From Nitrospirota bacterium (GTDB lineage: Bacteria > Nitrospirota > UBA9217): a stretch of 64,000 nt of DNA. Made by a program: the position numbers and the translations under genes. Under the pieces are notes generated by a model. The model saw only the letters and a program-made list of their open reading frames with translations. It was not told where the DNA came from and did no database searches. Location of the stretch: contig OY760142.1 of NCBI GenBank assembly GCA_963663225.1, positions 2,592,001-2,656,000 on the forward strand, in the 5' to 3' direction. Shown piece after piece: positions 7,700 to 23,570 of this stretch (position 1 is its first letter; each line of letters starts with the position of its first letter).

Positions 7700-7745
7700 A
7701 TGGAGCGGGTGGCGGGACTCGAACCCGTGACCCCAACCTTGGCAA
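7700..7745. repeat. att direct repeat: duplicated 3' half of tRNA-Gly(GCC)
   Basis: 46-bp exact match to 23461-23506; identity ends at the anticodon loop. Confidence 0.97.
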
Positions 7746-7863
7746 ACAAGCCGTAATAACGTTTAACCATTCCCCGCCTTGACCTTTCCTTGTCTTTTCA
7801 TGCCTTTAGTGTGCAATAGGTGATAAAGGCATTACCTTCTTTTGTCCTTTATTATACCCCTCT

Positions 7864-7896
7864 ACTAACACAGTTACTAGCACACCAACTGTCACG
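7864..7896 (+). repeat. Putative integrase arm-type sites (3 x 9 bp)
   Basis: ACTAACACA/ACTAGCACA/ACTGTCACG at 12-bp period; matched by ACTAGCACA/ACTGACACA at 23381-23400. Confidence 0.65.
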
Positions 7897-7904
7897 GAGA
7901 GCTA

Positions 7905-7933
7905 ATAATAAGAAACTTCACTGATTTTGTCAA
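7905..7933 (-). promoter_or_regulatory. Outward-facing sigma70 promoter at the left end of the element
   Basis: Minus strand TTGACA-N17-TATTAT. Confidence 0.7.
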
Positions 7934-7974
7934 GTTATTTGAAAATGAAAACGAAAAGGAAAAGGAGACTGAAA

Positions 7975-8298
7975 ATGAAAACGAAATTAAAAGTCAGTAA
8001 TCCCACCGAGCTATATAAATCCATTCAATCCAGCGTTAAACGCAGCTGTGTCAAGCATAAGAGCTTAATCAAAGAAATAAACCGCTACAAGTTGAATATA
8101 GAAGATGTCGATATTCTTTTTCAGACTATCGGAGACGATGAAGAGATAAGGTACAACCGTCTACAAAGAGGAAAAGAAAACCGGATCAGTGTCATTGTAG
8201 CTATGAAGCAGAGCCGTTTTGAGCCGGTTCAGCTCATTATTGATACTGGACTGATAAAAGAATTAGATAAACTAGATAAAGCAGGGACACCTGCTTAG
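7975..8298 (+). CDS. Hypothetical protein
   Basis: ORF with AAGGAG RBS before ATG 7975. Confidence 0.6.
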   Translation: MKTKLKVSNPTELYKSIQSSVKRSCVKHKSLIKEINRYKLNIEDVDILFQTIGDDEEIRYNRLQRGKENRISVIVAMKQSRFEPVQLIIDTGLIKELDKLDKAGTPA

Positions 8299-8327
8299 CA
8301 ACCAAATACTAAAAGGAGGGTAAAAAC

Positions 8328-8630
8328 ATGGAAAAGCTATTGAAAATAGACACTAGCAAAGACACTGGTGATGGAATGAAAGAAGCGAACAAAAGTCTAC
8401 TGGACGCAACCGATGAAATTGTCAAGGCACGTACAAAAATTGCGTTCTTGCTTAATGCAATATCTGGCGGAGAGCATGTTGATAGAGATTATTTCTTTAC
8501 AATAGACAATCCAGACGGACAGGAAGGTTTATGCTTTATTCTAATGGAAATTCACGAGCATCTTTGCCAGGCGATTAAACCACACTGGCTAGAAGGTGAC
8601 AGTAAACCAGAAGAGACAGTAACATTGTAG
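8328..8630 (+). CDS. Hypothetical protein
   Basis: AGGAGG RBS, 100 aa ORF. Confidence 0.7.
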   Translation: MEKLLKIDTSKDTGDGMKEANKSLLDATDEIVKARTKIAFLLNAISGGEHVDRDYFFTIDNPDGQEGLCFILMEIHEHLCQAIKPHWLEGDSKPEETVTL

Positions 8631-8637
8631 GCACTCG

Positions 8638-8672
8638 GCCCCCTGGGTGCGCAACCGGGGGGCTTTACTTTT
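8638..8672 (+). terminator. Intrinsic terminator
   Basis: GC-rich hairpin followed by TTTACTTTT. Confidence 0.65.
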
Positions 8673-8882
8673 CGAATAAGGAAGAGTAGACTTTTGAAGA
8701 CCGTATTAATAAACTAAAAGCCCATTTAGTAAAGCACCGAGACCAGCGCTTCATCTGGTTTGAACCAGACTCCCTTCATTCCTGGGACTAAAAAGGCTTT
8801 TACTTTAGTCCGGCGTGGCGTGTCAGTCGACACGCTTCACGCTGGATAGTTATATTATATCACTATAGATTAGGAGAAATAA

Positions 8883-9104
8883 ATGCCAAAACTTTCTGAA
8901 AAATTAGCAAAAGCACGAAAGGGGAAAAACTTATCAATGAGCGACGTAGAGCGTCTGTCTAGAAAGATTGCTACTGATTATCGAGGAAAGATAACGCAGG
9001 GTTATATATCGAGGCTTGAATCTGGCAGTGAAACAAACCCATCTTATCAGAAGATAATGACACTATCAAAAATATATAAAATTAAACCCGGCAGCTTATT
9101 TTGA
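8883..9104 (+). CDS. XRE/Cro-C1-type HTH regulator
   Basis: L..ARK.K.LS...V.....ITQGYISRLESG..NPS...I..LS..Y pattern. Confidence 0.9.
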   Translation: MPKLSEKLAKARKGKNLSMSDVERLSRKIATDYRGKITQGYISRLESGSETNPSYQKIMTLSKIYKIKPGSLF

Positions 9105-9177
9105 CATCAGTAAATTTTAAACTAAAACGGTATTTTCCTTATCTTCTTAGGACTGCTAAAGAAAAGGAGGCAAAAAA

Positions 9178-9678
9178 ATGAAAATATTTTTTATATACTG
9201 CTCGCTCTTATTGTTTTTATCTGCATGTGCTAACTGCAAACAAATGCATTCTCTGCAAATTGGCATGTCAGAGCAAGAGGTTGTGAAAATTATGGATCGT
9301 TCACCAAGTAAAGTTAGTGCATCTAGTAACTCTAAAATTATTTATTATTCATGCCGAGGGTCTATGCCAGATTCTGGTATGAAATTTATTGATAATAAGC
9401 TGGTTGCTTATGGGCCCGAAAGTCAAGTCAACGCAGACGCTTCCACGAGCCTTGTAGCACTAACACAAAATTCTTGGTCAAAAGAAGGAAGCACAGATGC
9501 TAATCAATTTAATAAAGATAAATATGATTGTGCAAAACAAGCAGAACGATCATATGCTACAGGAGGAAGTGGATTAGTTGGCATGATGAAGGCAAGTCAG
9601 TTCGAAGAAAAACAAGATAAAAAAGAATATGATTTTTTCGTTATGTGTATGGAATCGAAGGGTTATAAGAAAAAGTAG
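9178..9678 (+). CDS. Lipoprotein with SmpA/BamE-like N-terminal region
   Basis: Lipobox LSAC, LQIGMSEQEV..IM..P motif, C-terminal D.YDC...CMESKGY module. Confidence 0.75.
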   Translation: MKIFFIYCSLLLFLSACANCKQMHSLQIGMSEQEVVKIMDRSPSKVSASSNSKIIYYSCRGSMPDSGMKFIDNKLVAYGPESQVNADASTSLVALTQNSWSKEGSTDANQFNKDKYDCAKQAERSYATGGSGLVGMMKASQFEEKQDKKEYDFFVMCMESKGYKKK

Positions 9679-9739
9679 TTTCGCGAATGTTTCAGAAGGT
9701 TTCGGGTAGTGTTTGTGGATATGACGAAAGGAGAATAGC

Positions 9740-10285
9740 ATGACAAAGTTGATAAAGCTACTTCTACTTTTAGCATCCCTGTGTTTTTCTTGTACGCAAC
9801 AGAACCAAACCACAGCGCTGCAAATAACAAAACTAGAAAAAGAGATTGAAGTATTAAAATCAGCAATTGCTGAGTTAAAGCAGGATAGGTCTTGGGATGA
9901 ATTTGTTAAATCACTAGAGTCAACGGCATATCTCACACCCGGTGCGGGCGGATATTCTGTTATACAATGCGATCTAGGGCGTATGACTGTGCAGCTTAAT
10001 GACGTTAAGCCGTATGCTAACGGAAGTAAGATAACGCTTCGTATAGGGAACTTGACGACAGCTACCGTGAACGGTGCTAAAGCAAAGATAGAATGGGGCT
10101 CTGTAAACGAAAAGGGAATTCCTATTAATGAAAGTGCTAAAAACCGTGATTTTAATTTTAACAAACCACTTAGACCCGGTACTTGGAATCATGTGACTGT
10201 TATACTTGAGGGCGTACCACCGGTGCAATTAGGATTTGTTCGTATACGAGAAATGACTCATACAGGAATTGTTTTAAAACTTTAA
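9740..10285 (+). CDS. DUF3251/YajI-like lipoprotein
   Basis: Lipobox-like signal, coiled coil, AYLTPG..GYS.....G...V....V.PYANGS...L.IGN motif. Confidence 0.7.
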   Translation: MTKLIKLLLLLASLCFSCTQQNQTTALQITKLEKEIEVLKSAIAELKQDRSWDEFVKSLESTAYLTPGAGGYSVIQCDLGRMTVQLNDVKPYANGSKITLRIGNLTTATVNGAKAKIEWGSVNEKGIPINESAKNRDFNFNKPLRPGTWNHVTVILEGVPPVQLGFVRIREMTHTGIVLKL

Positions 10286-10329
10286 AAATATCTCTAAGGA
10301 ACAATTAAATATGCTGAGAAAGGTTGCTA

Positions 10330-11016
10330 ATGAATAAATTTATTTTAACTTTTGTCGTGACCGTGACACTCTTTGTCACTCCCTCCTACGCTTGGCACGA
10401 TAAAACCCATATAGCAGTTGCTGAGGTCGCCGGTTACGAATGTTGGTACAATGCTGCCGGTGCAGATATTACTAAAACCAAGGCTGGTGCAATAGAGGAA
10501 AAGAACCATTACTTTAATAACTATGAAAATGAAACTATTACCGACAAAACGGTTCTTAGTCAGGTTAAGGCGTATAACAGCCCTACAGATAATGAGGGAC
10601 ACCTTTACGGGGCTATTATTGCCTCTTTGAGAGACTACCGAAAGAAGAAAGCTTCAGGTAAATACGCCGAGTACAATATGGCCTTTGCTGTTCATTATAT
10701 AGGGGATTTATCGCAGCCATTGCACAATGTTCGTTATGATCAATTCAATAAATCACATCACTCAGCGAATGACGGCATTGTAGATGACGAAGTCTTAGAT
10801 AATCTCAAGTCAATTGAAAAGAATATGTACGAGATTAAGCTGAATAAAGAAAGCTTTGAAGAAGACTTGGCAAAGGAGATCGCCCGAATAGCAAATATTT
10901 CACGTCAGCTTGCGGAGAAAATCAAAACAGAGAAGAGAAATATGACCAAAGAAGAGGCGTATATCCAATTGGGGCATAGTGCATCACTGTTAAAAGCCAT
11001 ACTCATGAATCATTGA
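10330..11016 (+). CDS. Secreted S1/P1 nuclease / zinc phospholipase C superfamily enzyme
   Basis: Signal peptide ending SYA, mature N-terminus WHDKTH, AD, HYF, HYIGDLSQPLH and H...D trinuclear Zn ligands. Confidence 0.85.
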   Translation: MNKFILTFVVTVTLFVTPSYAWHDKTHIAVAEVAGYECWYNAAGADITKTKAGAIEEKNHYFNNYENETITDKTVLSQVKAYNSPTDNEGHLYGAIIASLRDYRKKKASGKYAEYNMAFAVHYIGDLSQPLHNVRYDQFNKSHHSANDGIVDDEVLDNLKSIEKNMYEIKLNKESFEEDLAKEIARIANISRQLAEKIKTEKRNMTKEEAYIQLGHSASLLKAILMNH

Positions 11017-11048
11017 GAATAATTTTAATGGATAAATGGGAGGGCATT

Positions 11049-12218
11049 ATGAAAAAGAGTTGTCTAGTCTTGGTATTTCTCTTCATCCCGGCCCTTGTGG
11101 TTGCTTCTGAGTCAATTTCTCAAAGTACATCAACGCATGTTCTTCCGGATGCTGACTTCAAAACAAATAGTACTAATACCAGCGTTATTAATCCTACAGA
11201 AATTAAATGGGAGGAAATCGATAAAGCAGAAGAACATTTTCAAAATGCTCTTTCGGCAGATTCGTTCGACGATTCAATTAAAGAAATAACTCGCGCTATT
11301 TTACTAAAGCCTGACAGAGCAAAGTACTATTCTTTTAGAGGTGATAAATACTATTTAAAAAGATCATTAGATGATTTTAAAAAAGATAAAAAACTATCTT
11401 TAAAAGCATTAAATGATTACAATGCTTGCCTTAAATTAAGTCAAAATGACCTAGATACAAACCTAGATTGTTCTATGGCAAAAGGAGAAATTCTTTGTAA
11501 TATAGGACGCTATAAAGAAGGGATAGCTGAATTAAGTAATAGTATTAATAAAATACACGATCAACATTTAAATACTTATGTGCAGGCAAGATTTTATGAA
11601 TTAAGAGCTTTATGCTATCAAGAGACGAAGCAATTCAACAAAGCAATAACTGATATATCTAAGGCTATTAATTTAAAAAAGGACAATAACTTTTATACTT
11701 TGATATCAAGAGCAGCTATGTATCAGCATATGAATTTGTTAAATGAATCTCTGCGCGACCTTCAAGCCGCGTGTAAAATGTGTAAAAACATAAAAGGATG
11801 CAAAGAATACCCCTGCTTATCAGCATTTAATTTAAAACGTACTATAAATAGAGGTGATAAATATCAGTACATAGGCTCGGTAGAAGATTATGATTGGTAT
11901 TATGATAAGCAAAGCATAGTACAAAAAAAACACCAAAACCTGAAAGTATGGTTGCGTCTAGAGCCAATAACTCAATTAAACTCAGGTGGAATATTGCTTG
12001 ATGAGAATTATTCTTATAAACTTTTACTATGGCACATTGACTGCCTAAATCGTGAACTTGCGGCAGAGTCCAGCGTTGAGTACGACACTAATGGGAAATT
12101 AGTAAAAAACTATCATTTTGACCCTAGTTCTAGTTACACAAAAGCCACTGTTGTGCCTGATAGTATGGGAGATGTTGTTGCAAATCACCTATGCAAAGTT
12201 CGCCGCAGCAAACACTAA
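11049..12218 (+). CDS. Secreted TPR protein with C-terminal surface-adhesin-E-like domain
   Basis: Signal peptide, TPR repeats, YYDKQSI...VW...IDC....YD.NG...VPDS...C motif. Confidence 0.75.
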   Translation: MKKSCLVLVFLFIPALVVASESISQSTSTHVLPDADFKTNSTNTSVINPTEIKWEEIDKAEEHFQNALSADSFDDSIKEITRAILLKPDRAKYYSFRGDKYYLKRSLDDFKKDKKLSLKALNDYNACLKLSQNDLDTNLDCSMAKGEILCNIGRYKEGIAELSNSINKIHDQHLNTYVQARFYELRALCYQETKQFNKAITDISKAINLKKDNNFYTLISRAAMYQHMNLLNESLRDLQAACKMCKNIKGCKEYPCLSAFNLKRTINRGDKYQYIGSVEDYDWYYDKQSIVQKKHQNLKVWLRLEPITQLNSGGILLDENYSYKLLLWHIDCLNRELAAESSVEYDTNGKLVKNYHFDPSSSYTKATVVPDSMGDVVANHLCKVRRSKH

Positions 12219-12305
12219 TCAACTCATTTTTTGATTAGTGCAAAGCATTTTTTCTTATTTTTAATCCATTTAAAAACAGTTAATAGAAGGCTAATTGGTG
12301 ATAAA

Positions 12306-12461
12306 GTGGCAAACAAGGACGACCAGAAAGAAGTTGTTACTTTTGAAGAACTTTTGTTGAGCAACACAATTCAACAAGAAGCCATAGTCAATTTGCTAGT
12401 TAAAAAGGGCATAATAAGCAAAATAGAGCTACTTGAAGAGATTAAAAGAATTAGTACGTAG
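12306..12461 (+). CDS. Small hypothetical protein
   Basis: GTG start; EELLLSN...EA.VNLL.KKGII...ELLEEIK helical pattern. Confidence 0.6.
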   Translation: MANKDDQKEVVTFEELLLSNTIQQEAIVNLLVKKGIISKIELLEEIKRIST

Positions 12462-12557
12462 CAAATGTAAATTATTTGATAAACCACGTATTAATCATTT
12501 GTGGATTGGAATTTAATAGGACATTATATAGATATTCTATCTAAGGAGGGTACTTAA

Positions 12558-13664
12558 ATGGGTTTTTATATCCGAAAAAGTATCAGTCTTGGTCCTTTTA
12601 GGTTCAATCTTTCCAAATCAGGGATAGGTGTATCTGCTGGAATCAAAGGTTTGCGATTTGGAACCGGCCCTAAAGGCAACTATGTTCACATGGGAAGAGG
12701 AGGTATTTATTTTAGACAAACCTTAACTCCATCAGGAAAACAAAACCTACCTAGGATCCCTGATAATCAAAATAGGACTTCTCCTCCACAAAACAGCTTA
12801 TCAATACCGCATGATCCGACCGTGGGTGAATTTAAAGAAATAGATAGTACCTCAGTATTTCAGATGACAAGTAGCTCATCAGAAAAACTTCTTAAAGAGA
12901 TCAATGAGAAACACCAAAAACCTCGAGCTGTCCCTATTGTGGCAATTTTTGTAGGATGTTTGGTGATGCTGCTATGGTATGCAAAAATTCCATCCTGGGC
13001 ACTAGCTTTATCAGTATTCATTGCAGTTGTCGGTATTCTCTTGGCCCATTGGAGGGACCAAATAAATAAAAATGTAGTTATTTTTTATGAATTTGATTCT
13101 GAACTGGAAAAAGCATACCAATCCTTATTGGATGCTTTTGCTAATATAACAAAATGTCAACGGATTAAACACGTAGAGGGCGCAGCAGAAGTTCTAGATA
13201 AAAAATATCATGCTGGCGCTAACAAGTTGGTTAGTATCAAATCTATTACGTTACAATCTGGCGATTTACCTTTTTTAAAAACCAATATTCCAGTACCTTT
13301 AATTCCTGCTGGAAGACAAAAGCTAGCTTTCCTTCCGGATCGGTTACTGGTTGTTGAATCTGGTGGAGTTGGTGCGGTGGAGTATGCAAATCTAAAATTT
13401 ACAATCTCTGCGGAAAATTTTATAGAGGAAGATGGCGTACCCAGTGATTCCGTCGTAGTCGGTCATACATGGAAATATGTAAATAAGAAGGGTGGTCCCG
13501 ATAAACGATTTAAGGATAATAGAGAGCTACCAATAGTTCGATATGAACAAATTGCTTTTTCAAGCGACACAGGTCTAAATGAAGTAATTCAGTGCTCACG
13601 AGTAGGAGTAGGCGCTTCTCTTGAAGCATCAGTACGGAAAATACAAAAAAACATAAAAATATAA
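12558..13664 (+). CDS. DUF4236 domain membrane protein
   Basis: MGFYIRKSISLGPFRFNLSKSG.G.S.G..G N-terminus, two TM helices, TW.YVNK.GGPD.RFKDN. Confidence 0.85.
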   Translation: MGFYIRKSISLGPFRFNLSKSGIGVSAGIKGLRFGTGPKGNYVHMGRGGIYFRQTLTPSGKQNLPRIPDNQNRTSPPQNSLSIPHDPTVGEFKEIDSTSVFQMTSSSSEKLLKEINEKHQKPRAVPIVAIFVGCLVMLLWYAKIPSWALALSVFIAVVGILLAHWRDQINKNVVIFYEFDSELEKAYQSLLDAFANITKCQRIKHVEGAAEVLDKKYHAGANKLVSIKSITLQSGDLPFLKTNIPVPLIPAGRQKLAFLPDRLLVVESGGVGAVEYANLKFTISAENFIEEDGVPSDSVVVGHTWKYVNKKGGPDKRFKDNRELPIVRYEQIAFSSDTGLNEVIQCSRVGVGASLEASVRKIQKNIKI

Positions 13665-13692
13665 TTGATAGTTTAGGGTATATGAGGGGCAA

Positions 13693-14130
13693 ATGAAAAT
13701 TATTTTTTTAATTATTGGAATATTTTTGTTTATGACCAATCTGTCTTTTACTGCCGACCATAAGCTTGATAGAAAGCAGATTTATGAGTTGAAAGAAAAA
13801 TGCAGTAAACGAGCAGAAGAAGTTTTTAAAAGAGATTATAATTCATCATCTTGGCAGGAAGAAGACGGCTCACATGTGACTGTTAATTTCAGAAATCATT
13901 ATAATAGAAAAGTAAATAAATGTTTTATGTTAACAGCATATTCTTCATTTAATGTAAAAGAAAAAACACTTATTCGCACAGAAGATTTGATCGATATTAA
14001 TGAAAACAGAAAATATGGTACTTCTACAATATTGAACCATAATAAACCAATTGAATGCGTAATTCTGGATAAAATATGTAATTCGAAAAATGAATGGAAT
14101 CGTTTAATTAAACCATATATGGAAGAATAG
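13693..14130 (+). CDS. Secreted hypothetical protein
   Basis: Signal peptide, four Cys, HYN...NKCF motif. Confidence 0.7.
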   Translation: MKIIFLIIGIFLFMTNLSFTADHKLDRKQIYELKEKCSKRAEEVFKRDYNSSSWQEEDGSHVTVNFRNHYNRKVNKCFMLTAYSSFNVKEKTLIRTEDLIDINENRKYGTSTILNHNKPIECVILDKICNSKNEWNRLIKPYMEE

Positions 14131-14214
14131 GTTTAAAAAAAATGGGTGAGCTCCCGAAAAGAGCAACTTCGCGGCATAATTTGAGTAGCTTGAAGAAATG
14201 CAAGGAAAAGAAAA

Positions 14215-15198
14215 ATGAAAAAAGAATTGGATTTAAAAGCGTTAACAATGGGCAGCTTGTATTGGGATAGGCCTTCTTCTTATCTCCAAAAAAAGAAAGA
14301 TTTGATGTATCGAGACCCTTTGCTTCTTGAACTTGCAAAACTTATTGATTCATACGATATCAAACATAAATGTCCACCAGAAGATAAAATAACAGATTTA
14401 AAGAATCGCATTGAAGCTAAATGGAATGTTAGCCTTATTATTACTGGATATGCTCAGCCGAATGTCAATGGAGTTGAAATAGTAGAATCATTTAAACCTG
14501 ACTTGCCTCTTTCTCCTATAAAAGTTAAAGAAATCGACTTGAAAGGCAAAGAAGTTATTAAGGAAGCAGAAGTATTTCTTATTTACAATAGGGTTAAGGG
14601 CTTTCCTCTTTCGTCGTTTCCTGTTCTCTCCAGCGAAATGCTTATATCTACACAAGCACCCATATTGACGATTCAAGTAGACCTTGATTGCATAACTTTG
14701 AATGATAGTGCTTTCATGAGGAAGGCCATGTGGGAGATAATTAAGCGCAATCTTATGGAAAGACGAAATGCTAAACGTCCAGTAGCAAAGAGGTCAAAAG
14801 GAATTATCTTAAACGACCATGCAGAATTAGACTTTGTTTATACTAGCAAGGATGACATTTTTAAGAATTACCTTCGCTGGTATGATATGCATATAAGAGA
14901 AAAGTTAAGCTTTAGACTTATTGCACTTTACGAGAAAACGAAACCAGAACAGCAATCTTTTCTTCTTGAATGCATTAAAACACAAAAAAGCAGATATGGA
15001 ATATCTATCAAAGGAGAAGACAAAATAGAAAAAGGTATCAGACTTATCTATAAAGCTATTCACAGAGCAAACTATTCGAGGAATGCAGTTACCCCGACAC
15101 TTGAGGTTTATGATTGCCCGAAACATGGCAACCAGTGCCCTGTTTCTTGTACCTATTATAAAGAATGGCTTGCTAGATTCAATCGATTAACACCATAA
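14215..15198 (+). CDS. Hypothetical protein with C-terminal Cys/His cluster
   Basis: 327 aa ORF ending CPKHGNQCPVSC. Confidence 0.7.
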   Translation: MKKELDLKALTMGSLYWDRPSSYLQKKKDLMYRDPLLLELAKLIDSYDIKHKCPPEDKITDLKNRIEAKWNVSLIITGYAQPNVNGVEIVESFKPDLPLSPIKVKEIDLKGKEVIKEAEVFLIYNRVKGFPLSSFPVLSSEMLISTQAPILTIQVDLDCITLNDSAFMRKAMWEIIKRNLMERRNAKRPVAKRSKGIILNDHAELDFVYTSKDDIFKNYLRWYDMHIREKLSFRLIALYEKTKPEQQSFLLECIKTQKSRYGISIKGEDKIEKGIRLIYKAIHRANYSRNAVTPTLEVYDCPKHGNQCPVSCTYYKEWLARFNRLTP

Positions 15199-15563: not shown

Positions 15564-16065
15564 ACATACTGCTGAGGATTGCATAGACAATAAAGTAGAG
15601 GCTTTGACACCTCGTGACATCCAAATAGCCGGTCTAAGGGCAGCAGGCCTGAACTATCGGGCTATAGGGCAGGAGGTAGGGGTTTCCAGGCAGACAGTCT
15701 GTACCACTCTAAAAGATGACTGTGTACGAGATATCGTAGAAAGCTGTAGACAACGATTTGCCTTAGAAGGCTTTGAGAAGGCAGTTACAAATATTTTAAA
15801 TCTTATCAAAGATTATGAATCTCCTGTTCTTCCTGATAAAGATGGGAAGCTTACCGGTGATCAATATCAGCGTAAAGAACACGGATACCGCGCTTCCATG
15901 AAAGCACTTGAATCGTTAGGCATCGTACCTGCACACACACCGACTTTTTTGCAAAACGTATTCAATGTTAACCAGTCTAACCATATTAATCCGATTGTTG
16001 ACAAGATTTTAACGATACATCTTTCTAGTGATCTAATGATGGAAGAGCCTCAAGAGGAGAAGTAG
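15556..16065 (+). CDS. HTH protein, terminase small subunit-like
   Basis: N-terminal HTH (GLNYRAIGQEVGVSRQTV), helical core, extended N/Q-rich tail. Confidence 0.6.
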   Translation: MNKHTAEDCIDNKVEALTPRDIQIAGLRAAGLNYRAIGQEVGVSRQTVCTTLKDDCVRDIVESCRQRFALEGFEKAVTNILNLIKDYESPVLPDKDGKLTGDQYQRKEHGYRASMKALESLGIVPAHTPTFLQNVFNVNQSNHINPIVDKILTIHLSSDLMMEEPQEEK

Positions 16066-16293
16066 ACCACAACATAATGAAGGTTGTGACCTATGGGTAA
16101 AGACCAATTAAATCAATTAGTTAAAGTGGTATGTGTTAGTAAATTGTGCACTTGAAACTTATTGTAAAATGTTTTTTCTAGGGGGAGGGGGAGACCGGGA
16201 GACGGGAGTCCTCTTGGTGTTGGTGACAGTTATCCTCCCTTCACATAAATAGATTTTTTGGAATTATGAGCTACCAAGGCCCAGGAGGAAATC

Positions 16294-17337
16294 ATGCCAG
16301 AGTATACAGATCCATATTATTGGAGCAAGGATTTAATGAGAACCCAGTCTCAGCAGAAGGCTTTGGGGCAGACTCAAGGACTTTCTGCGCAAGCACTAAC
16401 AAACGTAGTGGCTGCCAATTACCAGGCTCAAGCACAAGAAGAATCTAGCCAAAGAAACTACGACCTAGCCGTCAGGCAGCAGACCCTTCAAGAGTCAGCT
16501 ACTAAGAGACAATTAGACCTAAAAGAACGTGAAAGTAATCAGCAAGCGGTAAGTAGTGCTGTGTCGGCACCGCTGGAGGGCCTCATGACATACAGACTAG
16601 GGGAACAAGCGGGTCTATGGGGCACAAAAGCGGCAGGTGATGCTACGATAACGGCCTTAGATACAGCTACGACACTACAAACCCCATCATTAGCGGTGGG
16701 TTCTCTTTATGGTACAACTTCAGCAGGATTGGGATTAGCAAGCACCCAAGCATTACCAGCCCTGTCAAGCTATGGGATTGGGGCTGAAGGTGTGCTGAGC
16801 TCTACTCCTGCATTAAGTACAGCATTACCTACTACATACACCGCTGGTGGGTTAGCCACAGACGTTACCGCTGGAACTGGTATGTGGTCTGCTATCGGTA
16901 GTGGCATATCCACAGCAGGAGAAGCCGTAGCCGGAGCTGCTACAGCGGCTTGGGAATGGCTTGCGGATATAGTTGTAGGTGTTGCCGCCTGGGTTCTTTG
17001 CTCAGAACTCGTAAGACAGGGATTACTTGAAAAAGAAATAGTAGATCAGGAATGGGAATATATCAAACCGCGTCTTACTACGGAAGTCTATTGGGGATAC
17101 AGACTATTAGCCGATCCTTTAGTAAGGATCATGCAAAGAAGTAAATTATTTACCAAGTGTATAGCTCCTTTTATCAGGGCTTTTGCTTATGAGATGGCTT
17201 CGAGGGTAAACCCTAATATCAAGGGAAGCCGTTTAGGTTCGTTTATTTTGTTTGTTGGATGTCCTATTTGCAAGGCTGTTTACATAGCCAAATACCGGAG
17301 GAAATCATGGCTCAAGCAAGTTTTCAGCTATAGATAG
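16294..17337 (+). CDS. Virion internal/DNA-ejection-like protein
   Basis: Q-rich coiled coil, long G/A/T/S-rich region, C-terminal VLCSEL..QG....YWGY...A.PLV..M domain of a type seen in phage virion proteins. Confidence 0.55.
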   Translation: MPEYTDPYYWSKDLMRTQSQQKALGQTQGLSAQALTNVVAANYQAQAQEESSQRNYDLAVRQQTLQESATKRQLDLKERESNQQAVSSAVSAPLEGLMTYRLGEQAGLWGTKAAGDATITALDTATTLQTPSLAVGSLYGTTSAGLGLASTQALPALSSYGIGAEGVLSSTPALSTALPTTYTAGGLATDVTAGTGMWSAIGSGISTAGEAVAGAATAAWEWLADIVVGVAAWVLCSELVRQGLLEKEIVDQEWEYIKPRLTTEVYWGYRLLADPLVRIMQRSKLFTKCIAPFIRAFAYEMASRVNPNIKGSRLGSFILFVGCPICKAVYIAKYRRKSWLKQVFSYR

Positions 17338-17379
17338 TATCGCGTAATTCGAAATAGAAAAAAAGAGAAGGAGACTGAG

Positions 17380-17628
17380 ATGGAGAAGAAAAGATTCGAA
17401 ACACAAGATATTTGGCTTTCAACTTTCCTGTATATGTGCGGATTAGTGCCTATCCTCAAAATGCGACAAGATACGGTCGTTTTTGCATTTCCTGCCTCAT
17501 CCGATCTAGACCGCCTGATAGTAAATTTCAATAACAATGTATCTGTACCTTCCTTGGACTTTGTAAACGCTCACAAGCTGGTTAGAGGGAGAATGCATGA
17601 CCTAAAACACGGTCGGGATCGAGTATGA
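17380..17628 (+). CDS. DUF5659-like small protein
   Basis: FETQDIWLSTFL...G....VVFAF.......F.....V...F. Confidence 0.75.
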   Translation: MEKKRFETQDIWLSTFLYMCGLVPILKMRQDTVVFAFPASSDLDRLIVNFNNNVSVPSLDFVNAHKLVRGRMHDLKHGRDRV

Positions 17629-17631
17629 GCT

Positions 17632-18864
17632 ATGCTAGTTGAAAAACCGAAAATCTACCCTATAGAAGAGTTTATTATCAATTTTGAAAATGTCCGTAAT
17701 CGGGAGAATATTTTTATTTCCGGAGATGATCAAGTCTTCGAGCAGCTTAAAAAAAATGGTTTCCCTGCTGTTACAACGGCCTTTACGGATTTAAATGGTG
17801 ACAAGGAATGGAAAGAAAAGTTTAACAATTATTTTATCGGTAAGGGAGTTTTCATTGTTCCAGGCGATGAACCTAATTATGCTAAGACGGTAGCTAATAA
17901 TCTTTATGGTCTTGCAAAGGGAATCAAGATACTTGATGTTGATGATGCTGAAGACAAAGAGGTGATTAAAGCATTGTCGATATCTACCCTGAATTGGAAA
18001 CCAGCAGGTGAGGATAAAACGGCTATTCCTGAAGCCTCAGAGGATAAAAAGGAGCCACCAGCGTCAGCAGATGTTGAGGATAGCGCCAGTCCACAGCTTA
18101 AAGATGGCTACACCAGGTTAGCAAATGAAATTTTAGACGCATTCGCCATGACTAAGCTTAGCGGTTATGGATTTCGCATTATCGCGGCTGTTGTCAGAAA
18201 AACATATGGATATAGAAAGAAAACGGATTGGATATCAAATAGTCAATTTGTCAAGATGACAGGAATATTAAAACCGCATGTCTCCCGGACTGTTAAAGAG
18301 CTCTGCACTAGAAATATACTGATACGGGATGGTTACAAGGTCGGTCTTCAGAAAGACTATAAACAATGGCTGTTACCAAAATCGGTAACTCTTAAAAAGA
18401 CGAAGTTGCCTAAAAAGGTAACAGTTACCGAAAATGGTAACTCAAAAAAAGGAAAGGGAGTAGAGTTACCGAAAATGGATAAAAAGTTACCATCGGCGGG
18501 GCACACAAAAGAAACTATACAAAAGAAAAAAGATTGCGTTTCGCCTAAAGGCTCACCGCCTTCTAGTCCTGACAGTAAAAGGAAATTAGTAAATCCCGGG
18601 GTCAAACAGATTGTCGATCACTTTTACAACCTATGCCAAGAGAGAAAAGGCTTTGCGCCTAGGATTACCGTGAAAGATGGAAAGCTGGTAAAGAATGTTC
18701 TGGCAGAGATGTCATTGAATGAGGTTCGAGCGTGCATTGATTTTTTCTTGAAACATCCAAAATCCGAGGAACACACCACTTTGGCGGCAGCGGTATCAGC
18801 GGATACGATTAATCTTTATCTCAAGAGCAAAGCACGGAAAGAATCAGAGGGTATTTTTCTATGA
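17632..18864 (+). CDS. Replication initiator: degenerate TOPRIM fused to lambda O-type domain
   Basis: GYTRLANEILDA......RKTYGY.KKTDWISNSQF..MTG (phage replication protein O N-terminal domain). Confidence 0.85.
   Translation: MLVEKPKIYPIEEFIINFENVRNRENIFISGDDQVFEQLKKNGFPAVTTAFTDLNGDKEWKEKFNNYFIGKGVFIVPGDEPNYAKTVANNLYGLAKGIKILDVDDAEDKEVIKALSISTLNWKPAGEDKTAIPEASEDKKEPPASADVEDSASPQLKDGYTRLANEILDAFAMTKLSGYGFRIIAAVVRKTYGYRKKTDWISNSQFVKMTGILKPHVSRTVKELCTRNILIRDGYKVGLQKDYKQWLLPKSVTLKKTKLPKKVTVTENGNSKKGKGVELPKMDKKLPSAGHTKETIQKKKDCVSPKGSPPSSPDSKRKLVNPGVKQIVDHFYNLCQERKGFAPRITVKDGKLVKNVLAEMSLNEVRACIDFFLKHPKSEEHTTLAAAVSADTINLYLKSKARKESEGIFL
18372..18491. repeat. Palindromic iterons GTTACC-N6-GGTAAC (putative origin)
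   Basis: 18-bp copies at 18372, 18405, 18424 and 18465, half-site at 18486, followed by an A-rich tract. Confidence 0.8.
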
Positions 18865-19754
18865 GCGATGAATGGGACGTACTGGCCGAGGAAATTAAAA
18901 ATAATGACAAGGGTAGTGAAAGCAAGCTATATCGACCATCCGATGTGCGGACAATTGCCGAAGAGGTGAGAAAATGGTGGTCAGGCATTAAAGATGGCAC
19001 CATTAAATTCATAAAAGCCTTACCGCTGTTGATTGATTATCTTCCTGCGTACATTGCGGGGCACATAATTATTATTTCTGGCTATACCTCTGCTGGTAAA
19101 TCACAGCTTGTCTCCCAGATCGTTGCATGGGCTGCTGGCGTAGAAAACAGCCCGGTGCTACTAATTAGCGTCGAGGATTCCCGTATGGAGAAGCTAATTT
19201 CTTTAGTTTCTGTCCTAACGGAGAAGGTACACAGGAAAAAAATGCTCCTGGGCAATATCGAGGATGATAAAGAGAAAATCGAAGCCGCTATGGAAAACAT
19301 CTCTTATTGGCCACTCCATATTTACGATGATGTCTATACCTTGGATGAAATAGAGCTATTAATACAAAAGCACAAACCTAAGTTACTGGTGATTGATTAC
19401 GTTCAAAATCTGGTGGTTAATAAAGAGGGTATATACGAGCGGATGTCATATGTGGCGCAAAGAATACAAAAGATGGCGGTTGAATATAATCTAACAATTA
19501 TTGCAGCCTCGCAGGTATCAAACGAGGGCGCTAAAAATGATAGCGAGGTGATAAGTCTTAAAGGTGCCGGTGAACTGGCAGCCGTGGCTCATACGGTAAT
19601 ACAACTTAAAAAAGGAAGGGAGGAGAAAAATAGACATCAGGTCAAAATACAGATAAAGAAGAACAAGGCATTCGGGAATTGTGGGGAAGTGGAAGGTGAA
19701 TTTAACGAGTATTGGACAATTATTCAAAAAGCAGGTGACAGATGGAGTGTTTAG
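18861..19754 (+). CDS. DnaB-like (SF4) helicase ATPase domain
   Basis: Walker A SGYTSAGKS, VIDYVQ, SQVSN, K.K arginine-finger region; lacks the DnaB N-terminal domain. Confidence 0.88.
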   Translation: MSDEWDVLAEEIKNNDKGSESKLYRPSDVRTIAEEVRKWWSGIKDGTIKFIKALPLLIDYLPAYIAGHIIIISGYTSAGKSQLVSQIVAWAAGVENSPVLLISVEDSRMEKLISLVSVLTEKVHRKKMLLGNIEDDKEKIEAAMENISYWPLHIYDDVYTLDEIELLIQKHKPKLLVIDYVQNLVVNKEGIYERMSYVAQRIQKMAVEYNLTIIAASQVSNEGAKNDSEVISLKGAGELAAVAHTVIQLKKGREEKNRHQVKIQIKKNKAFGNCGEVEGEFNEYWTIIQKAGDRWSV

Positions 19755-20275
19755 CAGAGACCAAGAGTACGCAAGAGAATATAAGAGATCACATTGTTGA
19801 GATGGGTGCAGCTGGTAGGTTAATGAGATCGCGGGCAGTCGAAGAACAGATAAAGGATATTGAGCAGGAACTTAGAGAAAGACGCGAACGGCTGAATGTT
19901 CAGGAAGAAGGAGTAGGTAAAAAATTAAATGAAAAATCAATACTGGCCCTTATCGCGCAGCGGAAGAAACTGTTACGTGAATTTGATTATGCGTTGTCCT
20001 GTTTGATAATGACTGCAACCAAGACCGATAACAGCGGGGTGAGTCGTGAAGAGATAGATCGGGCAAGAACCTATCCTATAGAATCATTAATAGAAGTGAG
20101 GCGGGATAAGATGGCCCGATGTGTGAGCGGTCAGCACTCAGACAACAGCCCATCTATGGATACGAGAAATAACTTTTGTTACTGCTACTCGTGTGGATGG
20201 ACAGGTGATGTTATTACCGTTTATCAAAAACTATACGGAGTAACATTTCCGGAAGCTGTGAGGGCTTTACAATGA
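19742..20275 (+). CDS. CHC2 zinc-finger protein (primase zinc-binding-domain-like)
   Basis: C....H.D..PS......CYSCG..GD.I.......F.EAV..L. Confidence 0.88.
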   Translation: MECLAETKSTQENIRDHIVEMGAAGRLMRSRAVEEQIKDIEQELRERRERLNVQEEGVGKKLNEKSILALIAQRKKLLREFDYALSCLIMTATKTDNSGVSREEIDRARTYPIESLIEVRRDKMARCVSGQHSDNSPSMDTRNNFCYCYSCGWTGDVITVYQKLYGVTFPEAVRALQ

Positions 20276-20451
20276 TGACCTTTAAAAGTACCGCATGGGA
20301 TTACCATATTCAGTGTCTACTAAAAGTTCAGAATAATCTTCTGAAGGTTAAGGCCAGTTGTTTTGAACTCCCGGACAGGGCGGCTTATGAGATTCAATCG
20401 GTAATGGATAAAATACCGGCAATTATCGAGATGATTGAAAAAGATAATTAA
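20272..20451 (+). CDS. Small hypothetical protein (59 aa, not in ORF track)
   Basis: ATGA overlap with the CHC2 stop; reads MMTFKSTAWDYHIQC...EKDN*. Confidence 0.5.
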   Translation: MMTFKSTAWDYHIQCLLKVQNNLLKVKASCFELPDRAAYEIQSVMDKIPAIIEMIEKDN

Positions 20452-20499
20452 ATGATAGTAACGGGAACGAGGATAAGAAGTTTAAGGAGATTTGAATAG

Positions 20500-20769
20500 G
20501 TGAAGCTAGAGCTAGAACAGGAAGATATAGATAGCTTAACTTTAAGGATAACACAGGAAGTTATAAAAGGCTTGCTCCCTACCTTGTTGAGTCAAGATCA
20601 AGCAGGGGATACTATCTATACTGTTGAAGCTTTAGCTAAATACCTGCAAACAACCCCTAAATGGGTTTATAATCATATCCATGAGTTGCCGCATTTTAAA
20701 AAAGAGGGACTGATTCGATTTAGAAAGAGTGATATAGATAAACTTTTTGAAGAGAAAAATTTGCGTTAA
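20500..20769 (+). CDS. Excisionase-like HTH_17 protein
   Basis: YTVEALAKYL.....WVY......LPHFK..G.IRF.KSDID. Confidence 0.88.
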   Translation: MKLELEQEDIDSLTLRITQEVIKGLLPTLLSQDQAGDTIYTVEALAKYLQTTPKWVYNHIHELPHFKKEGLIRFRKSDIDKLFEEKNLR

Positions 20770-20796
20770 TCTAATTCATATTACAGAGGAAAATTA

Positions 20797-21054
20797 CTAG
20801 AAGTGGAACGGGAAAATTGAAAAAAGTAGCTGTAATAGAGTTAATAGCACTCCAACGATTGCAGCCCCGGCTGCTATTCTACTCCAGAAAATTGATTTCC
20901 TAAACTGCGTTGTTGTTGAGATTTTATCTGCTTTTTCTCTTTTGGCGAGCTCTGATAATATTGTTTTATAAGTGGGATGCATGTGGCCATATAGTGGAAG
21001 CATATGCAGTAGCTCAGTCTGGGAGAGTTTAGATAAGTCTAGATTATTAGACAT
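20797..21054 (-). CDS. Small membrane protein
   Basis: Single C-terminal TM helix. Confidence 0.6.
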   Translation of the reverse strand: MSNNLDLSKLSQTELLHMLPLYGHMHPTYKTILSELAKREKADKISTTTQFRKSIFWSRIAAGAAIVGVLLTLLQLLFSIFPFHF

Positions 21055-21080
21055 ATTACATCCCTTTTGCTTCAATCTAC

Positions 21081-21782
21081 TCAATTGAGTGGCTTGAAAT
21101 TCGATACTGAAAATTTATTTTCGTTTGTTACATTAACTGTAATCTGGGCTTTATATGGTAAACAACTGCCTTCTGCTCGTACAGTTAATACATGGTTGCC
21201 CGGAGGTATCAGGCGGTGACCTTTTGCATACGTGAGGGCGGGACGTATAAAAATAGGGTCGATAGCATAACCTGTGTTTATTGGTATGCCTTCAATAACA
21301 TCTACCCATACTGTTGATCTAGCGGATATATCGAATGTAGAATTTTTATACTCCATAACTCTTAAACTATGATCGGGGAGGAAATCATTCCATGATTGTG
21401 ATTCAACTGATTCCAAAACAACACGAGTCCCTTTCACGGTAACATTACTATCATTAATGACAGCAAGACGATATAAGTCATTCTCTTTTTGGTATTCAGG
21501 TCTAATCATGGTGCCCTTGTAATCTAGTCTCAGTTTAGGTTTAGCTTCTTCTTCTAGCTTGATGCATCGCTTATTTTCATCTTCCCATTTGTTATGTTCA
21601 TCAAGCCATGTGTAATAGGAAGCGATAATGATCACGGCAAGGGTTATAAAACTAAAAATTTCCCAAGGGAGTGCTTTTTCACTCATATGCTCATAGATGG
21701 TAATTAGAACGATTCCGATTCCACCACTAAGGAAAGATACCCAGTGGCGAAATAGGTTTTTTGTAAATATCACTATATTCAT
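21081..21782 (-). CDS. Membrane protein (2 TM plus beta-rich domain)
   Basis: AGGAGGG RBS, two N-terminal TMs, coiled segment, Ig-like-looking C-terminus. Confidence 0.7.
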   Translation of the reverse strand: MNIVIFTKNLFRHWVSFLSGGIGIVLITIYEHMSEKALPWEIFSFITLAVIIIASYYTWLDEHNKWEDENKRCIKLEEEAKPKLRLDYKGTMIRPEYQKENDLYRLAVINDSNVTVKGTRVVLESVESQSWNDFLPDHSLRVMEYKNSTFDISARSTVWVDVIEGIPINTGYAIDPIFIRPALTYAKGHRLIPPGNHVLTVRAEGSCLPYKAQITVNVTNENKFSVSNFKPLN

Positions 21783-21845
21783 AATATTATTCCCTCCTAG
21801 GTAAGTATAGTCAAAATATAGATTACGGTAAAGAAAAAAACAAGC

Positions 21846-21874
21846 TTTAAAATAGGGTTAAAATACCCTATAAT
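21846..21874 (+). promoter_or_regulatory. Promoter with overlapping palindrome upstream of phd-int
   Basis: TTTAAA-N17-TATAAT; ATAGGGT-N6-ACCCTAT at 21852-21871. Confidence 0.5.
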
Positions 21875-21901
21875 TGCTTTAGGCGGAAAGGAGGTGAATA
21901 G

Positions 21902-22207
21902 ATGACCGGCGTTAAATTTGTTACTGTGTCAGACATTGATAGGAGGGCAACGTCGATAGTCACTGAGGTAGAGCACGGTAATCTTAAGGTAGCAATTACA
22001 AAAAATGGTTATCCTGTTGCTCTTCTTCAAAAATCAACTGGTACAGAAACAGGCCGGAGAGAGACGGTATCCAACCTGAAAAACCATGCAGCACAGATCA
22101 TATCGGAGCTTGTAAGTACAGGGAAGAAGATAATCATTACCAAGGATACCGAGCCTGTAGTAGTGATTCAGAAGATTTCGGATACAGTTTTTAGCATCGA
22201 GGAATGA
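21902..22207 (+). CDS. Tandem Phd/YefM-domain protein
   Basis: Two repeats: VTVSDI.....IV.EV......AITKNG.PVALL and TVSNLKN....II.EL...G..IIITK..EPVVVI. Confidence 0.8.
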   Translation: MTGVKFVTVSDIDRRATSIVTEVEHGNLKVAITKNGYPVALLQKSTGTETGRRETVSNLKNHAAQIISELVSTGKKIIITKDTEPVVVIQKISDTVFSIEE

Positions 22208-22228
22208 AAACGAGAAAGGAGGGAACCG

Positions 22229-23446
22229 ATGGCAAAATATCGCGGAGTTTATAAGCGTGGCGGGGTTTGGTGGTATCGCTATCCAGATCACTTAGGGAAG
22301 ATGATTAGAAAATCGTCTTTCTCTGTCAGGCAGTCGGATGCAGTAGACGCAAGAGCTAAAGCGGTAGCAGCCATACGGGAAGGTAAGGAGCCGGAAGAGA
22401 CAAAGAAGATAGCCACATATACCTTCAATGATCTTGCGGAGAAGTATTCTGCTTGGATCGAAGGTCGGCAAGCCTCTTCAGAAGTAAAGGGATATATTAT
22501 TAACAGGCTCAAAGAACGCTTAATTTTGTTGTCTGGTGAGACTGGTAATCCTATTTATGTAAAGCTTGGGCCTCTTCCCTTGCGACGATTTAACACTTAC
22601 CTGATTGAACAACTACAGAGTGACCTTAAAAAGAAAGGCCTAAGCAAACCAAAAACTGACAAGAACGGTAAGATTATAGAAGCGGGGCCGCTTCAAGACT
22701 CAAGCTCTAACAGAATCCTGAACACCTTGAAGCATATGTTCACAAAAGCCGTAGAATGGGAGATGGTAGAAGAAACGATCTTAAAGAAAATACGTAAGGT
22801 CAAATTACCGAAAGAAGTTGGAAGGCTACGGTATCTGTCCGCTAAGGAAGCCCAAGCCCTTGTAAGTGTATGTGACGATCATTTAAAGCCTATAGTGATT
22901 ACTGCTCTCCATACAGGAATGAGGAAAGGGGAGATACTAGGTCTTAAATGGGACAACTTAGACTTGGAGCATGGGTTTATTCTCCTGGATAAAACGAAAA
23001 ATGGGGAGCGGCGAGAAATACCGATTAATAAGACGCTCAGAGAAGTATTTAATAAATTGCCCAGACGTTTTACAGGAGAAGGAGAAGACAGGCAGCTTAT
23101 ACCGTATGTATTTCACAATGTAAGAACTCTAAATTTTTACGGTAATGTGAAACGGAGCTTCAAGACAGCTGCTAAAACCGCAGGGCTAACAGACTTGCAT
23201 TTTCATGATCTGAGGCACACCTATGCTAGCCTTGCTATGATGAGTGGTAAAATAGACATTGCCACGCTGTCGAAGCTCTTAGGTCATAAAAATTTGAAGA
23301 TGACGATGAAGTATGCTCACCTCGCACCAACACACCTCACCAAAGCAGCCCACGTCATGGATGAAGTATACGACCTCTCAACTAGCACAAAACTGACACA
23401 GTCAGCCCATTTAGAAACAAAAAAGGAGTTAGCCTATGTTAGCTAA
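22229..23446 (+). CDS. Tyrosine recombinase / phage integrase
   Basis: N-terminal arm-binding domain, TGMRKGEI, HDLRH, LGH, Y; ends 15 bp from att. Confidence 0.97.
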   Translation: MAKYRGVYKRGGVWWYRYPDHLGKMIRKSSFSVRQSDAVDARAKAVAAIREGKEPEETKKIATYTFNDLAEKYSAWIEGRQASSEVKGYIINRLKERLILLSGETGNPIYVKLGPLPLRRFNTYLIEQLQSDLKKKGLSKPKTDKNGKIIEAGPLQDSSSNRILNTLKHMFTKAVEWEMVEETILKKIRKVKLPKEVGRLRYLSAKEAQALVSVCDDHLKPIVITALHTGMRKGEILGLKWDNLDLEHGFILLDKTKNGERREIPINKTLREVFNKLPRRFTGEGEDRQLIPYVFHNVRTLNFYGNVKRSFKTAAKTAGLTDLHFHDLRHTYASLAMMSGKIDIATLSKLLGHKNLKMTMKYAHLAPTHLTKAAHVMDEVYDLSTSTKLTQSAHLETKKELAYVS

Positions 23447-23461
23447 CCCCTTGTTTATAAA

Positions 23462-23537
23462 TGGAGCGGGTGGCGGGACTCGAACCCGTGACCCCAACCT
23501 TGGCAAGGTTGTGCTCTACCAACTGAGCTACACCCGC
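23462..23537 (-). tRNA. tRNA-Gly(GCC), integration target
   Basis: Reverse complement GCGGGTGTAGCTCAGTTGGTAGAGCACAACCTTGCCAAGGTTGGGGTCACGGGTTCGAGTCCCGCCACCCGCTCCA. Confidence 0.97.
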
Positions 23538-23570
23538 AGTAGAAAAAATATGATACGCTTTGGACGATGA

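Follow-up and report, generated by a model that had tools for sequence, protein, structure and literature searches.

A 15.8-kb tRNA-integrated element of a Nitrospirota bacterium as a predicted satellite of a co-resident podovirus-like prophage

Most of the known phage satellites stem from Proteobacteria and Firmicutes. One of them, P4, combines a cis sequence homologous to that of its helper with a replication module of its own. For the phage-inducible chromosomal islands (PICIs), the defining passages of one published description name an integrase, a regulator of the AlpA/MerR/Stl type, a pri-rep gene, a capsid-morphogenesis gene and a small terminase subunit (TerS) as core components, exclude other phage structural or lysis genes, and mention that the PICIs of the SaPI type (Staphylococcus aureus pathogenicity islands) are also without the capsid-morphogenesis gene; the same passages list Psu, Delta, Sid, Ash and alpha as markers of P4-like elements (PMC10085698). 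Packaging as concatemers is reported in parts of the literature on the marine virion-encapsidated integrative mobile elements (VEIMEs; PMC9618062) and on PICMIs, the phage-inducible chromosomal minimalist islands, for both in full-size capsids. Here, a stretch of 64,000 nucleotides from the chromosome of a Nitrospirota bacterium was analysed (contig OY760142.1, positions 2,592,001 to 2,656,000; called the window in the following, its positions being used wherever the genome, G000, is not named), in which an integrated unit of 15,761 bp lies between repeats at 7700 and 23506. This element is, with somewhat more than an even chance, a PICI-like satellite of a prophage residing in the tRNA-SeC gene of the same chromosome, probably packaged as concatemers, its mobilisation being a prediction from sequence. 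It is read in this way because a TerS-like gene, an 89-bp non-coding site and a virion gene, g14, are common to element and prophage, and because no capsid gene was recognised among the element's own genes.

The element is a true insertion, since empty sites exist in relatives. It is bounded by two exact copies of a 46-nt direct repeat with a start-to-start spacing of 15,761 bp. The left copy (attL, 7700–7745) repeats the tRNA-Gly 3′ end, with tRNA-Cys (7543–7618) immediately to the left of the element, and the right copy (attR, 23461–23506) is the 3′ part of tRNA-Gly(gcc) itself, encoded at 23462–23537 on the minus strand; Rfam returned these two tRNAs and no other match over 7400–23800. For the empty-site search the right-flank gene was used as query against 41 genomes of the family, and five of the twelve returned loci were inspected. 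In two of these, from the same-genus genomes G001 and G003, tRNA-Gly and tRNA-Cys are separated by 85–115 bp, and the left flank of the window can be aligned across the junction without interruption. In the closest relative, G004, tRNA-Gly is occupied by a different element (L208, G004:C24:48100-51547), the integrase and the HTH_17/excisionase-like protein of which are 51% and 43% identical to those of the window element, and the contig of which stops after 3.4 kb; within the G007 locus tRNA-Gly alone is present, and the G021 locus is a paralogue. With exact att repeats, empty sites, a coding density of 91% and no other prophage gene fragments the mobile unit looks intact, and both the att-bounded unit and the nearly single-strand layout that the original prediction had described were found again (22 of 24 open reading frames, ORFs, on the plus strand). 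The GC content is 38.9% for the element, 41.4% for its core and 36.2% for its cargo, compared with 41.6% for the prophage and 49.4% for the genome.

All 24 ORFs were screened against Pfam, PHROGs, NCBIfam and PADLOC, and in these four libraries none of them matched a capsid, portal, large terminase (TerL), tail, lysis or conjugation family, as had been predicted; likewise, no conjugation or mobilisation gene was found in the element with Pfam, PHROGs and NCBIfam. The predicted set of integrase, excisionase-like protein, XRE protein, O-type initiator, DnaB and CHC2 protein was matched in Pfam and PHROGs, and the predicted iterons were found again in the DNA.

The candidate helper is a podovirus-like prophage of 43,586 bp on the same chromosome (G000:C1:3214285-3255001 plus 1-2893, crossing the contig origin), which lies between 24-bp repeats of the tRNA-SeC 3′ end. 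It was found by searching the window's own genome with g14; Pfam terminase families run over the same genome missed it. Three features of the element, i.e., g14, the TerS-like protein and the 89-bp site, recur solely in this prophage within the 3.26-Mb genome, and when the ORFs of the prophage region were compared with the element by tblastn the TerS-like gene and the virion gene matched, plus two matches at chance level and nothing else. The early genes of the prophage comprise an integrase, a cI/cro-like pair, a CII-like gene and an HNH endonuclease. Its TerL of 564 aa, for which Pfam and PHROGs gave no match, was scored 0.98 by the Atlas against Terminase_6N clusters and shows Walker-like motifs that can be read in the sequence. 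The structural genes include an SU10-type portal and adaptor, a Mu-gpT-like capsid protein and a phrog_770 DNA-transfer protein; most structural proteins have no Pfam or PHROG match, and PDB sequence searches with the three largest unassigned proteins gave no useful match. From this gene content the prophage looks complete, making it a candidate helper of predicted competence. It is 2.77 times as large as the element, and size and composition (prophage versus element core) fit a helper pairing. A second prophage at about 3116000–3166000 (G000:C1) encodes TerL (phrog_2), a portal, a capsid protein (phrog_1357), amidases, RecT and an integrase and has solely an XRE-type protein in common with the element, with 61% identity to the protein encoded at 8883–9104. 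A further copy of this XRE protein, 67% identical, is encoded at G000 2288459–2288662.

The TerS-like gene of the element (15541–16065, plus strand) encodes a helix-turn-helix (HTH) protein of 174 aa with an HTH_23 domain, the match of which to phrog_2538 is, taken alone, weak (3.5e-5). It is 31% identical (E 1e-19) to a protein of 160 aa in the prophage, the gene of which is located 646 nt upstream of that for TerL. A profile built from both proteins retrieved 672 relatives of about 140–200 aa, matched over almost their full length, whereas a word-based search with the TerS-like protein gave the self match alone. Among 73 aligned family members 24 match phrog_2538, annotated as terminase small subunit, with a best E of 5.6e-12; apart from the sigma-factor matches discussed below, the other matches are to generic HTH families. 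The structural model (pLDDT 84.8) shows an N-terminal HTH followed by long helices. Its best match among solved structures is 2ao9, a Bacillus cereus prophage protein (Foldseek E 0.035, probability 1.0, 121 columns), which has been discussed as a small-terminase-like oligomer; in a comparison by VIA, 2ao9 gave Z 6.3 over 107 aligned residues and the DNA-binding domain of the SF6 small terminase Z 4.9. The assignment as TerS is considered moderate, judged from these matches and the model. Two of the related phage records from IMG/VR show peculiarities of their own: in the record behind L007 the terS-like frame (G401:C1:6235-6666) has one in-frame TGA, and in the record behind L010 the TerL homologue is matched in four pieces over an open frame of 1306 aa (G403:C1:43275-47069), which may contain inteins or insertions of another kind.

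Downstream of the TerS-like gene lies the 89-bp non-coding site (16179–16267, plus strand; core GGGGAGGGGGAGACCGG at 16182), which is 84% identical to prophage DNA and is located 113 nt downstream of terS in the element and 125 nt downstream of the terS-like gene in the prophage. Its G-rich core of 17 nt, GGGGAGGGGNNNACCGG, occurs twice in the 3.26-Mb genome, once in the element and once in the prophage, where 0.02 occurrences are expected. Moreover, the core is present once each in two of five related phage records (G401, G404), about 180–290 nt downstream of the terS-like gene, and the reversed pattern, used as control, had zero matches in these records. When IMG/VR was scanned with the core, at least 120 stretches came up, and 80 of the loci were examined: a correctly oriented terS-like gene was present in one of these alone, the G404 record known before, L122 showed a weak terS-like match in the opposite orientation, and the others look like chance. 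Since a single-copy motif keeps its place beside the terS-like gene across phages whose proteins are 30–60% identical, the site is, judged by its conservation, a functional cis element, and it is a candidate for a pac/cos site or a late-promoter region.

The third shared feature, g14 (16294–17337, plus strand), encodes a protein of 347 aa without family match that is 86–88% identical to the product of the prophage gene at G000 3221708–3222754. The ratio of non-synonymous to synonymous substitution rates between both copies (dN/dS) is 0.15 at a dS of 0.65. The differences are unevenly distributed: over codons 211–330 the proteins are 100% identical, with 10 synonymous differences in 360 nt, the first 210 codons hold about 149 nucleotide differences, and the protein stretch that tells both copies apart is residues 90–200, a pattern that fits a recent gene conversion between the co-resident copies. 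Homology extends from about codon 5 to about 10 codons before the stop, and the element copy has its own start region, ribosome-binding site and C-terminus. Due to the low dN/dS and this gene-precise homology, g14 presents itself as a maintained, free-standing gene under purifying selection, and neither as a deletion scar nor as debris.

The g14 family is rare. A search of 5.8 billion proteins yielded 20 members, both copies of this genome included; among 61 related genomes g14 was found in one, the element's own, and single-protein scans of genome and viral contigs with g14 and RepO gave no relatives. A profile scan of IMG/VR returned 17 g14 loci, and where flanks are available the gene follows homologues of the prophage's adaptor and of its protein of 996 aa (996-aa protein in seven, adaptor in six and capsid protein in four loci); the element's other 23 proteins had no match in any of these loci. 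In the prophage, g14 is followed by genes for 481 and 594 aa, the latter of which matches DNA-transfer PHROGs. In podoviruses such as T7 and P22 the internal or ejection proteins come after the adaptor and nozzle genes. Because of its position after the adaptor and 996-aa genes, g14 is, by analogy in gene order, a candidate for an internal or ejection-type protein. In the model of the protein, a long N-terminal helix is followed by a disordered middle rich in Ala, Gly and Thr and then by a C-terminal helical domain, with fold confidence for this domain and one long helix only; fold searches gave uncharacterised Caudovirales proteins in BFVD and generic coiled coils in the PDB (Z at most 6.7). 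Between element and prophage the C-terminal domain is identical and the N-terminal two-thirds have diverged. The original prediction had spoken of a TerS-like and an ejection-like gene: both turned out to have prophage homologues, and the two labels themselves are drawn from weak homology, fold and gene position.

The replication module of the element is lambdoid in its initiator, as had been proposed. The Rep-O protein (17632–18864, plus strand; PF04492, 2e-30, residues 155–246) carries a Toprim-like N-terminal domain, and the iterons, three copies of GTTACC-N6-GGTAAC and one degenerate copy (18372–18480), are found inside its gene directly after the part for the DNA-binding domain. The genes for a DnaB_C-type helicase of 297 aa (18861–19754; PF03796, 1.7e-22), comprising the C-terminal ATPase domain alone, and for a CHC2 zinc-finger protein (19742–20275; PF01807, 6.7e-7), i.e., a primase zinc ribbon without catalytic core, follow on the same strand. 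Within Rep-O, residues 27–114 match the Toprim domain in a G299 protein of 672 aa with CHC2-Toprim-helicase architecture, and therefore the three domains of a primase-helicase are present, distributed over three genes that follow each other as Toprim-RepO, DnaB_C and CHC2 (17632–20275). The Toprim link was made solely via G299; BLAST of the RepO N-terminus against the host DnaG gave no match and a PDB sequence search with it no useful match. In the metagenome relatives L062 and L063, a Toprim-like segment and the CHC2 finger occur within one protein of about 300 aa.

The module is framed by further plus-strand genes, which include a DUF5659 protein (17380–17628; PF18903, 9.5e-7) upstream of repO, a protein of 59 aa (20272–20451) behind the CHC2 gene, and an HTH_17 protein (20500–20769; PF12728, 1.9e-10) that is a candidate excisionase or AlpA-type regulator, matching phrog_66, 'excisionase and transcriptional regulator', at 5.4e-6 and not matching the Pfam AlpA model at E ≤ 0.01. 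The tyrosine integrase of 405 aa (22229–23446; PF00589, 5e-31; phrog_1, 5e-62) adjoins attR. Immediately 5′ of it a Phd/YefM-like protein of two tandem half-domains is encoded (21902–22207; PF02604, 1.8e-11).

This backbone recurs in two other genera. Among 401 genomes of the phylum RepO-domain proteins were found in 22 and the full-length CHC2 protein in three, namely that of the element itself, G010 and G249; in another four the match is confined to the zinc-finger part, within frames of 570–678 aa. In G249 an element of 12,056 bp is integrated in tRNA-SeC and in G010 one of 20,096 bp in tRNA-Glu (G010:C15:708072-728167, L038/L039), both bounded by tRNA-derived repeats. Both carry the genes for DUF5659 (in the same place beside repO), RepO, DnaB_C, CHC2 (36–40% identical to the window protein), the 59-aa protein (41–45% identical, likewise next to the CHC2 gene), a phd-like protein and an integrase, and in both the iterons are located inside repO, that of G249 being the same GTTACC-N6-GGTAAC. 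No structural gene was found in either element. The phd-like gene stands just upstream of a short integrase gene in both relatives, and in all three backbone elements it has no toxin partner and lies immediately 5′ of the integrase (L036:11548-11784 and L039:9660-9833 in the relatives). Its product may serve in recombination or regulation instead of acting as an antitoxin. The cargo of the relatives differs, with a trypsin-like protease in one and a NACHT/STAND protein of 1943 aa in the other. In G010, where the element carries this 1943-aa NACHT/STAND NTPase and two integrases, the att core occurs a third time at a distance of 6.2 kb beyond it, suggesting that elements stand in tandem there. 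The backbone thus defines a small family of tRNA-integrated islands of 12–20 kb with variable cargo including a NACHT/STAND gene, present in 3 of the 401 genomes. By comparison of the three, a small island of a type that already existed seems to have acquired the terS-site-g14 block. A metagenome scan with the CHC2 alignment gave 22 loci, mostly on contigs of 1–4 kb; in the longer ones, phage-like early regions too contain the DnaB_C plus CHC2 module, so that these loci fit satellite and phage alike.

Combining these features, the following mechanism is proposed. The integrase and the HTH_17 protein would excise a circle of 15,761 bp from tRNA-Gly. The Rep-O initiator would bind the iterons within its own gene, and the DnaB_C helicase and the split primase set, made up of the Toprim-like domain on Rep-O and the CHC2 protein, would replicate the circle together with it. 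Next, the TerL and the procapsids of the helper would be steered to the element's DNA by the TerS-like protein together with the cis site, a copy from the terS-terL intergenic region of the helper. Since no capsid-remodelling gene was recognised and the helper exceeds the element 2.77-fold in size, packaging would be expected to proceed via concatemers, with about 2.8 units per helper-sized headful, and the element's version of g14 would presumably be built into the helper particles. A further, doubtful reading goes beyond this: a satellite that has its own TerS and a mimic of the cis site might also supply a variant of an internal or ejection protein of the helper, which would be a new hijacking strategy in what would be the first satellite-helper pair defined in the Nitrospirota, both partners being in one closed genome. 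If this were true, the helper-identical C-terminal domain of g14 would dock into the helper particle, and the diverged N-terminal part would alter DNA delivery, favouring transfer of the satellite or sabotaging the helper's progeny.

Several observations weigh against a satellite of the tRNA-SeC prophage as it is drawn here. An IS1-like transposase gene (3242719–3243594) is located immediately 5′ of the prophage's terS-like gene, the fold scores of the TerS-like protein stay under the tools' safe levels, the core of the 89-bp site was not found in three of the five related phage records, the site's RNA fold is no better than that of shuffled sequences (z +0.9 and −0.8) with no Rfam match, and a separate TerS is not obviously needed if element and helper share the site. 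Moreover, in four related phage records the terS-like gene is not adjacent to the TerL gene but lies 3.4–11 kb upstream of it on the same strand, and the HTH of the protein also resembles LuxR/GerE and sigma region 4 regulators, five of the 73 family members matching a 'sigma factor' PHROG. The last two points would also be expected if the element were a satellite in which the HTH protein acts as a late-gene activator and the 89-bp site is its target promoter region, with cross-activation between both partners and packaging via another signal. The P4 Delta and P2 Ogr proteins cross-activate each other's late genes in this way. In the 3′ part of the site, immediately upstream of g14, there is a TTCACA that resembles a −35 element, together with a spaced AATTAT, and an ORF begins soon after the site in every case; however, a promoter scan of the region found 44 sites versus 42 expected from shuffled sequence, terminase small subunit is the commonest named PHROG of the family, 2ao9 is the sole solved chain matching beyond the HTH, and the architecture of N-terminal HTH, long helices and 140–200 aa is that of small terminases. 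A role of the block in regulation instead of packaging is possible, if unlikely.

The evidence on mobility and on the relatives bears on two other explanations. Excision was checked in Logan assembled contigs of three runs from one sample (X1, X3, X4); among the joints listed no attB or attP joint was found, though contigs cannot reveal rare forms, and the sole joints listed fall inside g14 and fit the paralogous prophage copy. Contig depth over the element (16.6/50.7/31.5 and 11.9/42/36.9) is close to that of the flanks (13.2/54.7/41.3 and 15.3/46.6/42.1), giving no sign of over-replication as far as assembled contigs can show it; in the raw-read run X5 one read was placed. Furthermore, neither a TerS-like gene nor g14 was found in the G249 and G010 elements, and therefore the backbone family need not consist of satellites. 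All this, like the occurrence of the DnaB_C plus CHC2 module in ordinary phage-like contigs, would also suit a self-replicating island independent of any helper, which by recombination captured the terS-site-g14 fragment of a related phage, to serve as moron or exclusion gene; a membrane-active virion protein made by an island could serve superinfection exclusion. Yet the captured block is exactly what a satellite needs, a recognition protein with its adjacent cis site, the site is still 84% identical and single-copy, and no conjugation or mobilisation gene accompanies it. The block is also placed between replication and cargo, like the packaging module in the PICI layouts that the passages of PMC10085698 describe. 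Helper independence is regarded as improbable on this balance. The remaining explanation, a decayed prophage related to that in tRNA-SeC, from which the 18.7 kb separating the post-terS site from g14 had disappeared together with the remaining structural and lysis genes, has in its favour that site and g14 stand in the same order in the prophage, 18.7 kb apart as against 36 bp in the element, so that a single deletion could produce the arrangement. It is highly improbable given that the densely coding element contains no gene fragments or pseudogenes, that g14 has its own start and ribosome-binding site, a remodelled 3′ end and purifying selection, that a replication module and not the 481-aa and 594-aa virion genes follows it, and that the replication and integration backbone is without counterpart in the prophage. 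Relatives with a full structural operon, which would be expected for a deleted prophage, were looked for, and both relatives found are small, tRNA-integrated and capsid-less at 12 and 20 kb, which argues against this explanation, in agreement with the original prediction. For its broader claim of a phage satellite, the co-resident prophage with the shared virion gene, TerS-like gene and post-terS site has added a concrete partner, and the part concerning packaging and transfer stays a prediction.

The rest of the element is mainly cargo, in which PADLOC recognised no known defence system among the element's ORFs. The cargo block (7927–15198, 7.3 kb, plus strand) comprises eleven ORFs: two without assigned family, six of named families according to Pfam and PHROGs, one of 76 aa, and two of 145 and 327 aa likewise without assignment. 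The six encode an XRE HTH protein (8883–9104), a lipoprotein-like protein (9178–9678), a DUF3251 protein (9740–10285), an S1/P1-nuclease-like protein (10324–11016), a TPR plus Adhesin_E-like protein (11013–12218) and a DUF4236 membrane protein (12558–13664). The nuclease-like gene has a paralogue at G000 2831142–2831825 with 74% protein and 75% DNA identity, and at a hairpin (8637–8664) a 36-bp match (window 8660–8695) is found beside this paralogue, at 2832769–2832804; the paralogue and the hairpin match together suggest cargo common to the element and that locus. Between cargo and the TerS-like gene an ORF of 81 aa (15318–15563, plus strand) is weakly DUF5659-like by BLASTP against the 17380–17628 protein (E 4e-4 in this single comparison). 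Finally, the only two minus-strand ORFs (20797–21782; 95 and 233 aa) have hydrophobic segments and no match in the four libraries.

The candidate satellite and the candidate helper reside in one closed genome and are linked by the 89-bp site and the virion gene, which makes them a concrete pair. In the full text of the literature searched no satellite was found described in the Nitrospirota, although the supplements of satellite surveys could list similar elements, and neither a paper linking satellite, internal virion protein and helper phage nor one mentioning DUF5659 was found there. If the pairing is true, the satellite lifestyle would reach into a phylum of environmental importance, and an O-type or split-primase replicon would join the replication modules of satellites. 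In addition, satellites might then tamper with the helper's ejection apparatus, beyond capsid size and packaging.

Compared with the PICIs, as these are portrayed in the passages of PMC10085698, the element is alike in its size of about 15 kb or one third of the helper, in its site-specific integration at a tRNA by a tyrosine integrase, in the order of integrase, candidate regulator, replication module with origin, TerS packaging module and cargo, and in being without capsid, tail and lysis genes. Set against the PICI core, its integrase is present, its own small terminase is present at moderate support, the HTH_17 and XRE proteins are candidates for the regulator, being of a related HTH class, and the replication module is analogous, not homologous, to pri-rep: in place of a primase-helicase the element has a lambdoid Rep-O with iterons inside its gene, a DnaB_C helicase as a protein by itself, and Toprim and CHC2 parts that are split. 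It differs further by having no capsid-morphogenesis gene, by nearly all genes pointing towards the integrase, and by g14, which as a member of a family of podovirus-like structural operons breaks the rule of no structural genes. With P4 and P2 it has in common a cis packaging or late-control sequence homologous to that of the helper, an own replication module and a co-resident temperate helper; however, Sid, Psu, Delta, Ash and alpha were not found in it with Pfam and PHROGs, and P2 is a myovirus whereas the candidate helper is podovirus-like. The capsid, portal and head-assembly genes that capsid-forming PICIs (cfPICIs) bring along were not found by Pfam, PHROGs or tblastn, and the element carries none of the markers of the PICI-like elements (PLEs). 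The lambda O/P replicon is alike in its Rep-O DNA-binding domain (PF04492) and in iterons placed inside the initiator gene after that domain, an arrangement kept in G249 and G010, whereas the element, with no P-type helicase loader, encodes a DnaB_C helicase itself and has a Rep-O to which a Toprim-like domain is joined. The VEIMEs and PICMIs, in the portions of their descriptions concerned (PMC9618062 for the former), resemble it by having no capsid-remodelling gene, a TerS related to co-occurring phages and likely concatemers; they were defined from virions, the element from its genes, their gene sets and hosts differ, and the element stands at the upper end of their size range. Of the undescribed type that was originally proposed it can be said that no described family matches cleanly, while the functional layout is PICI-like and thus not wholly new. 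Taken together, the element works like a PICI or a VEIME, without belonging cleanly to a family that has been described.

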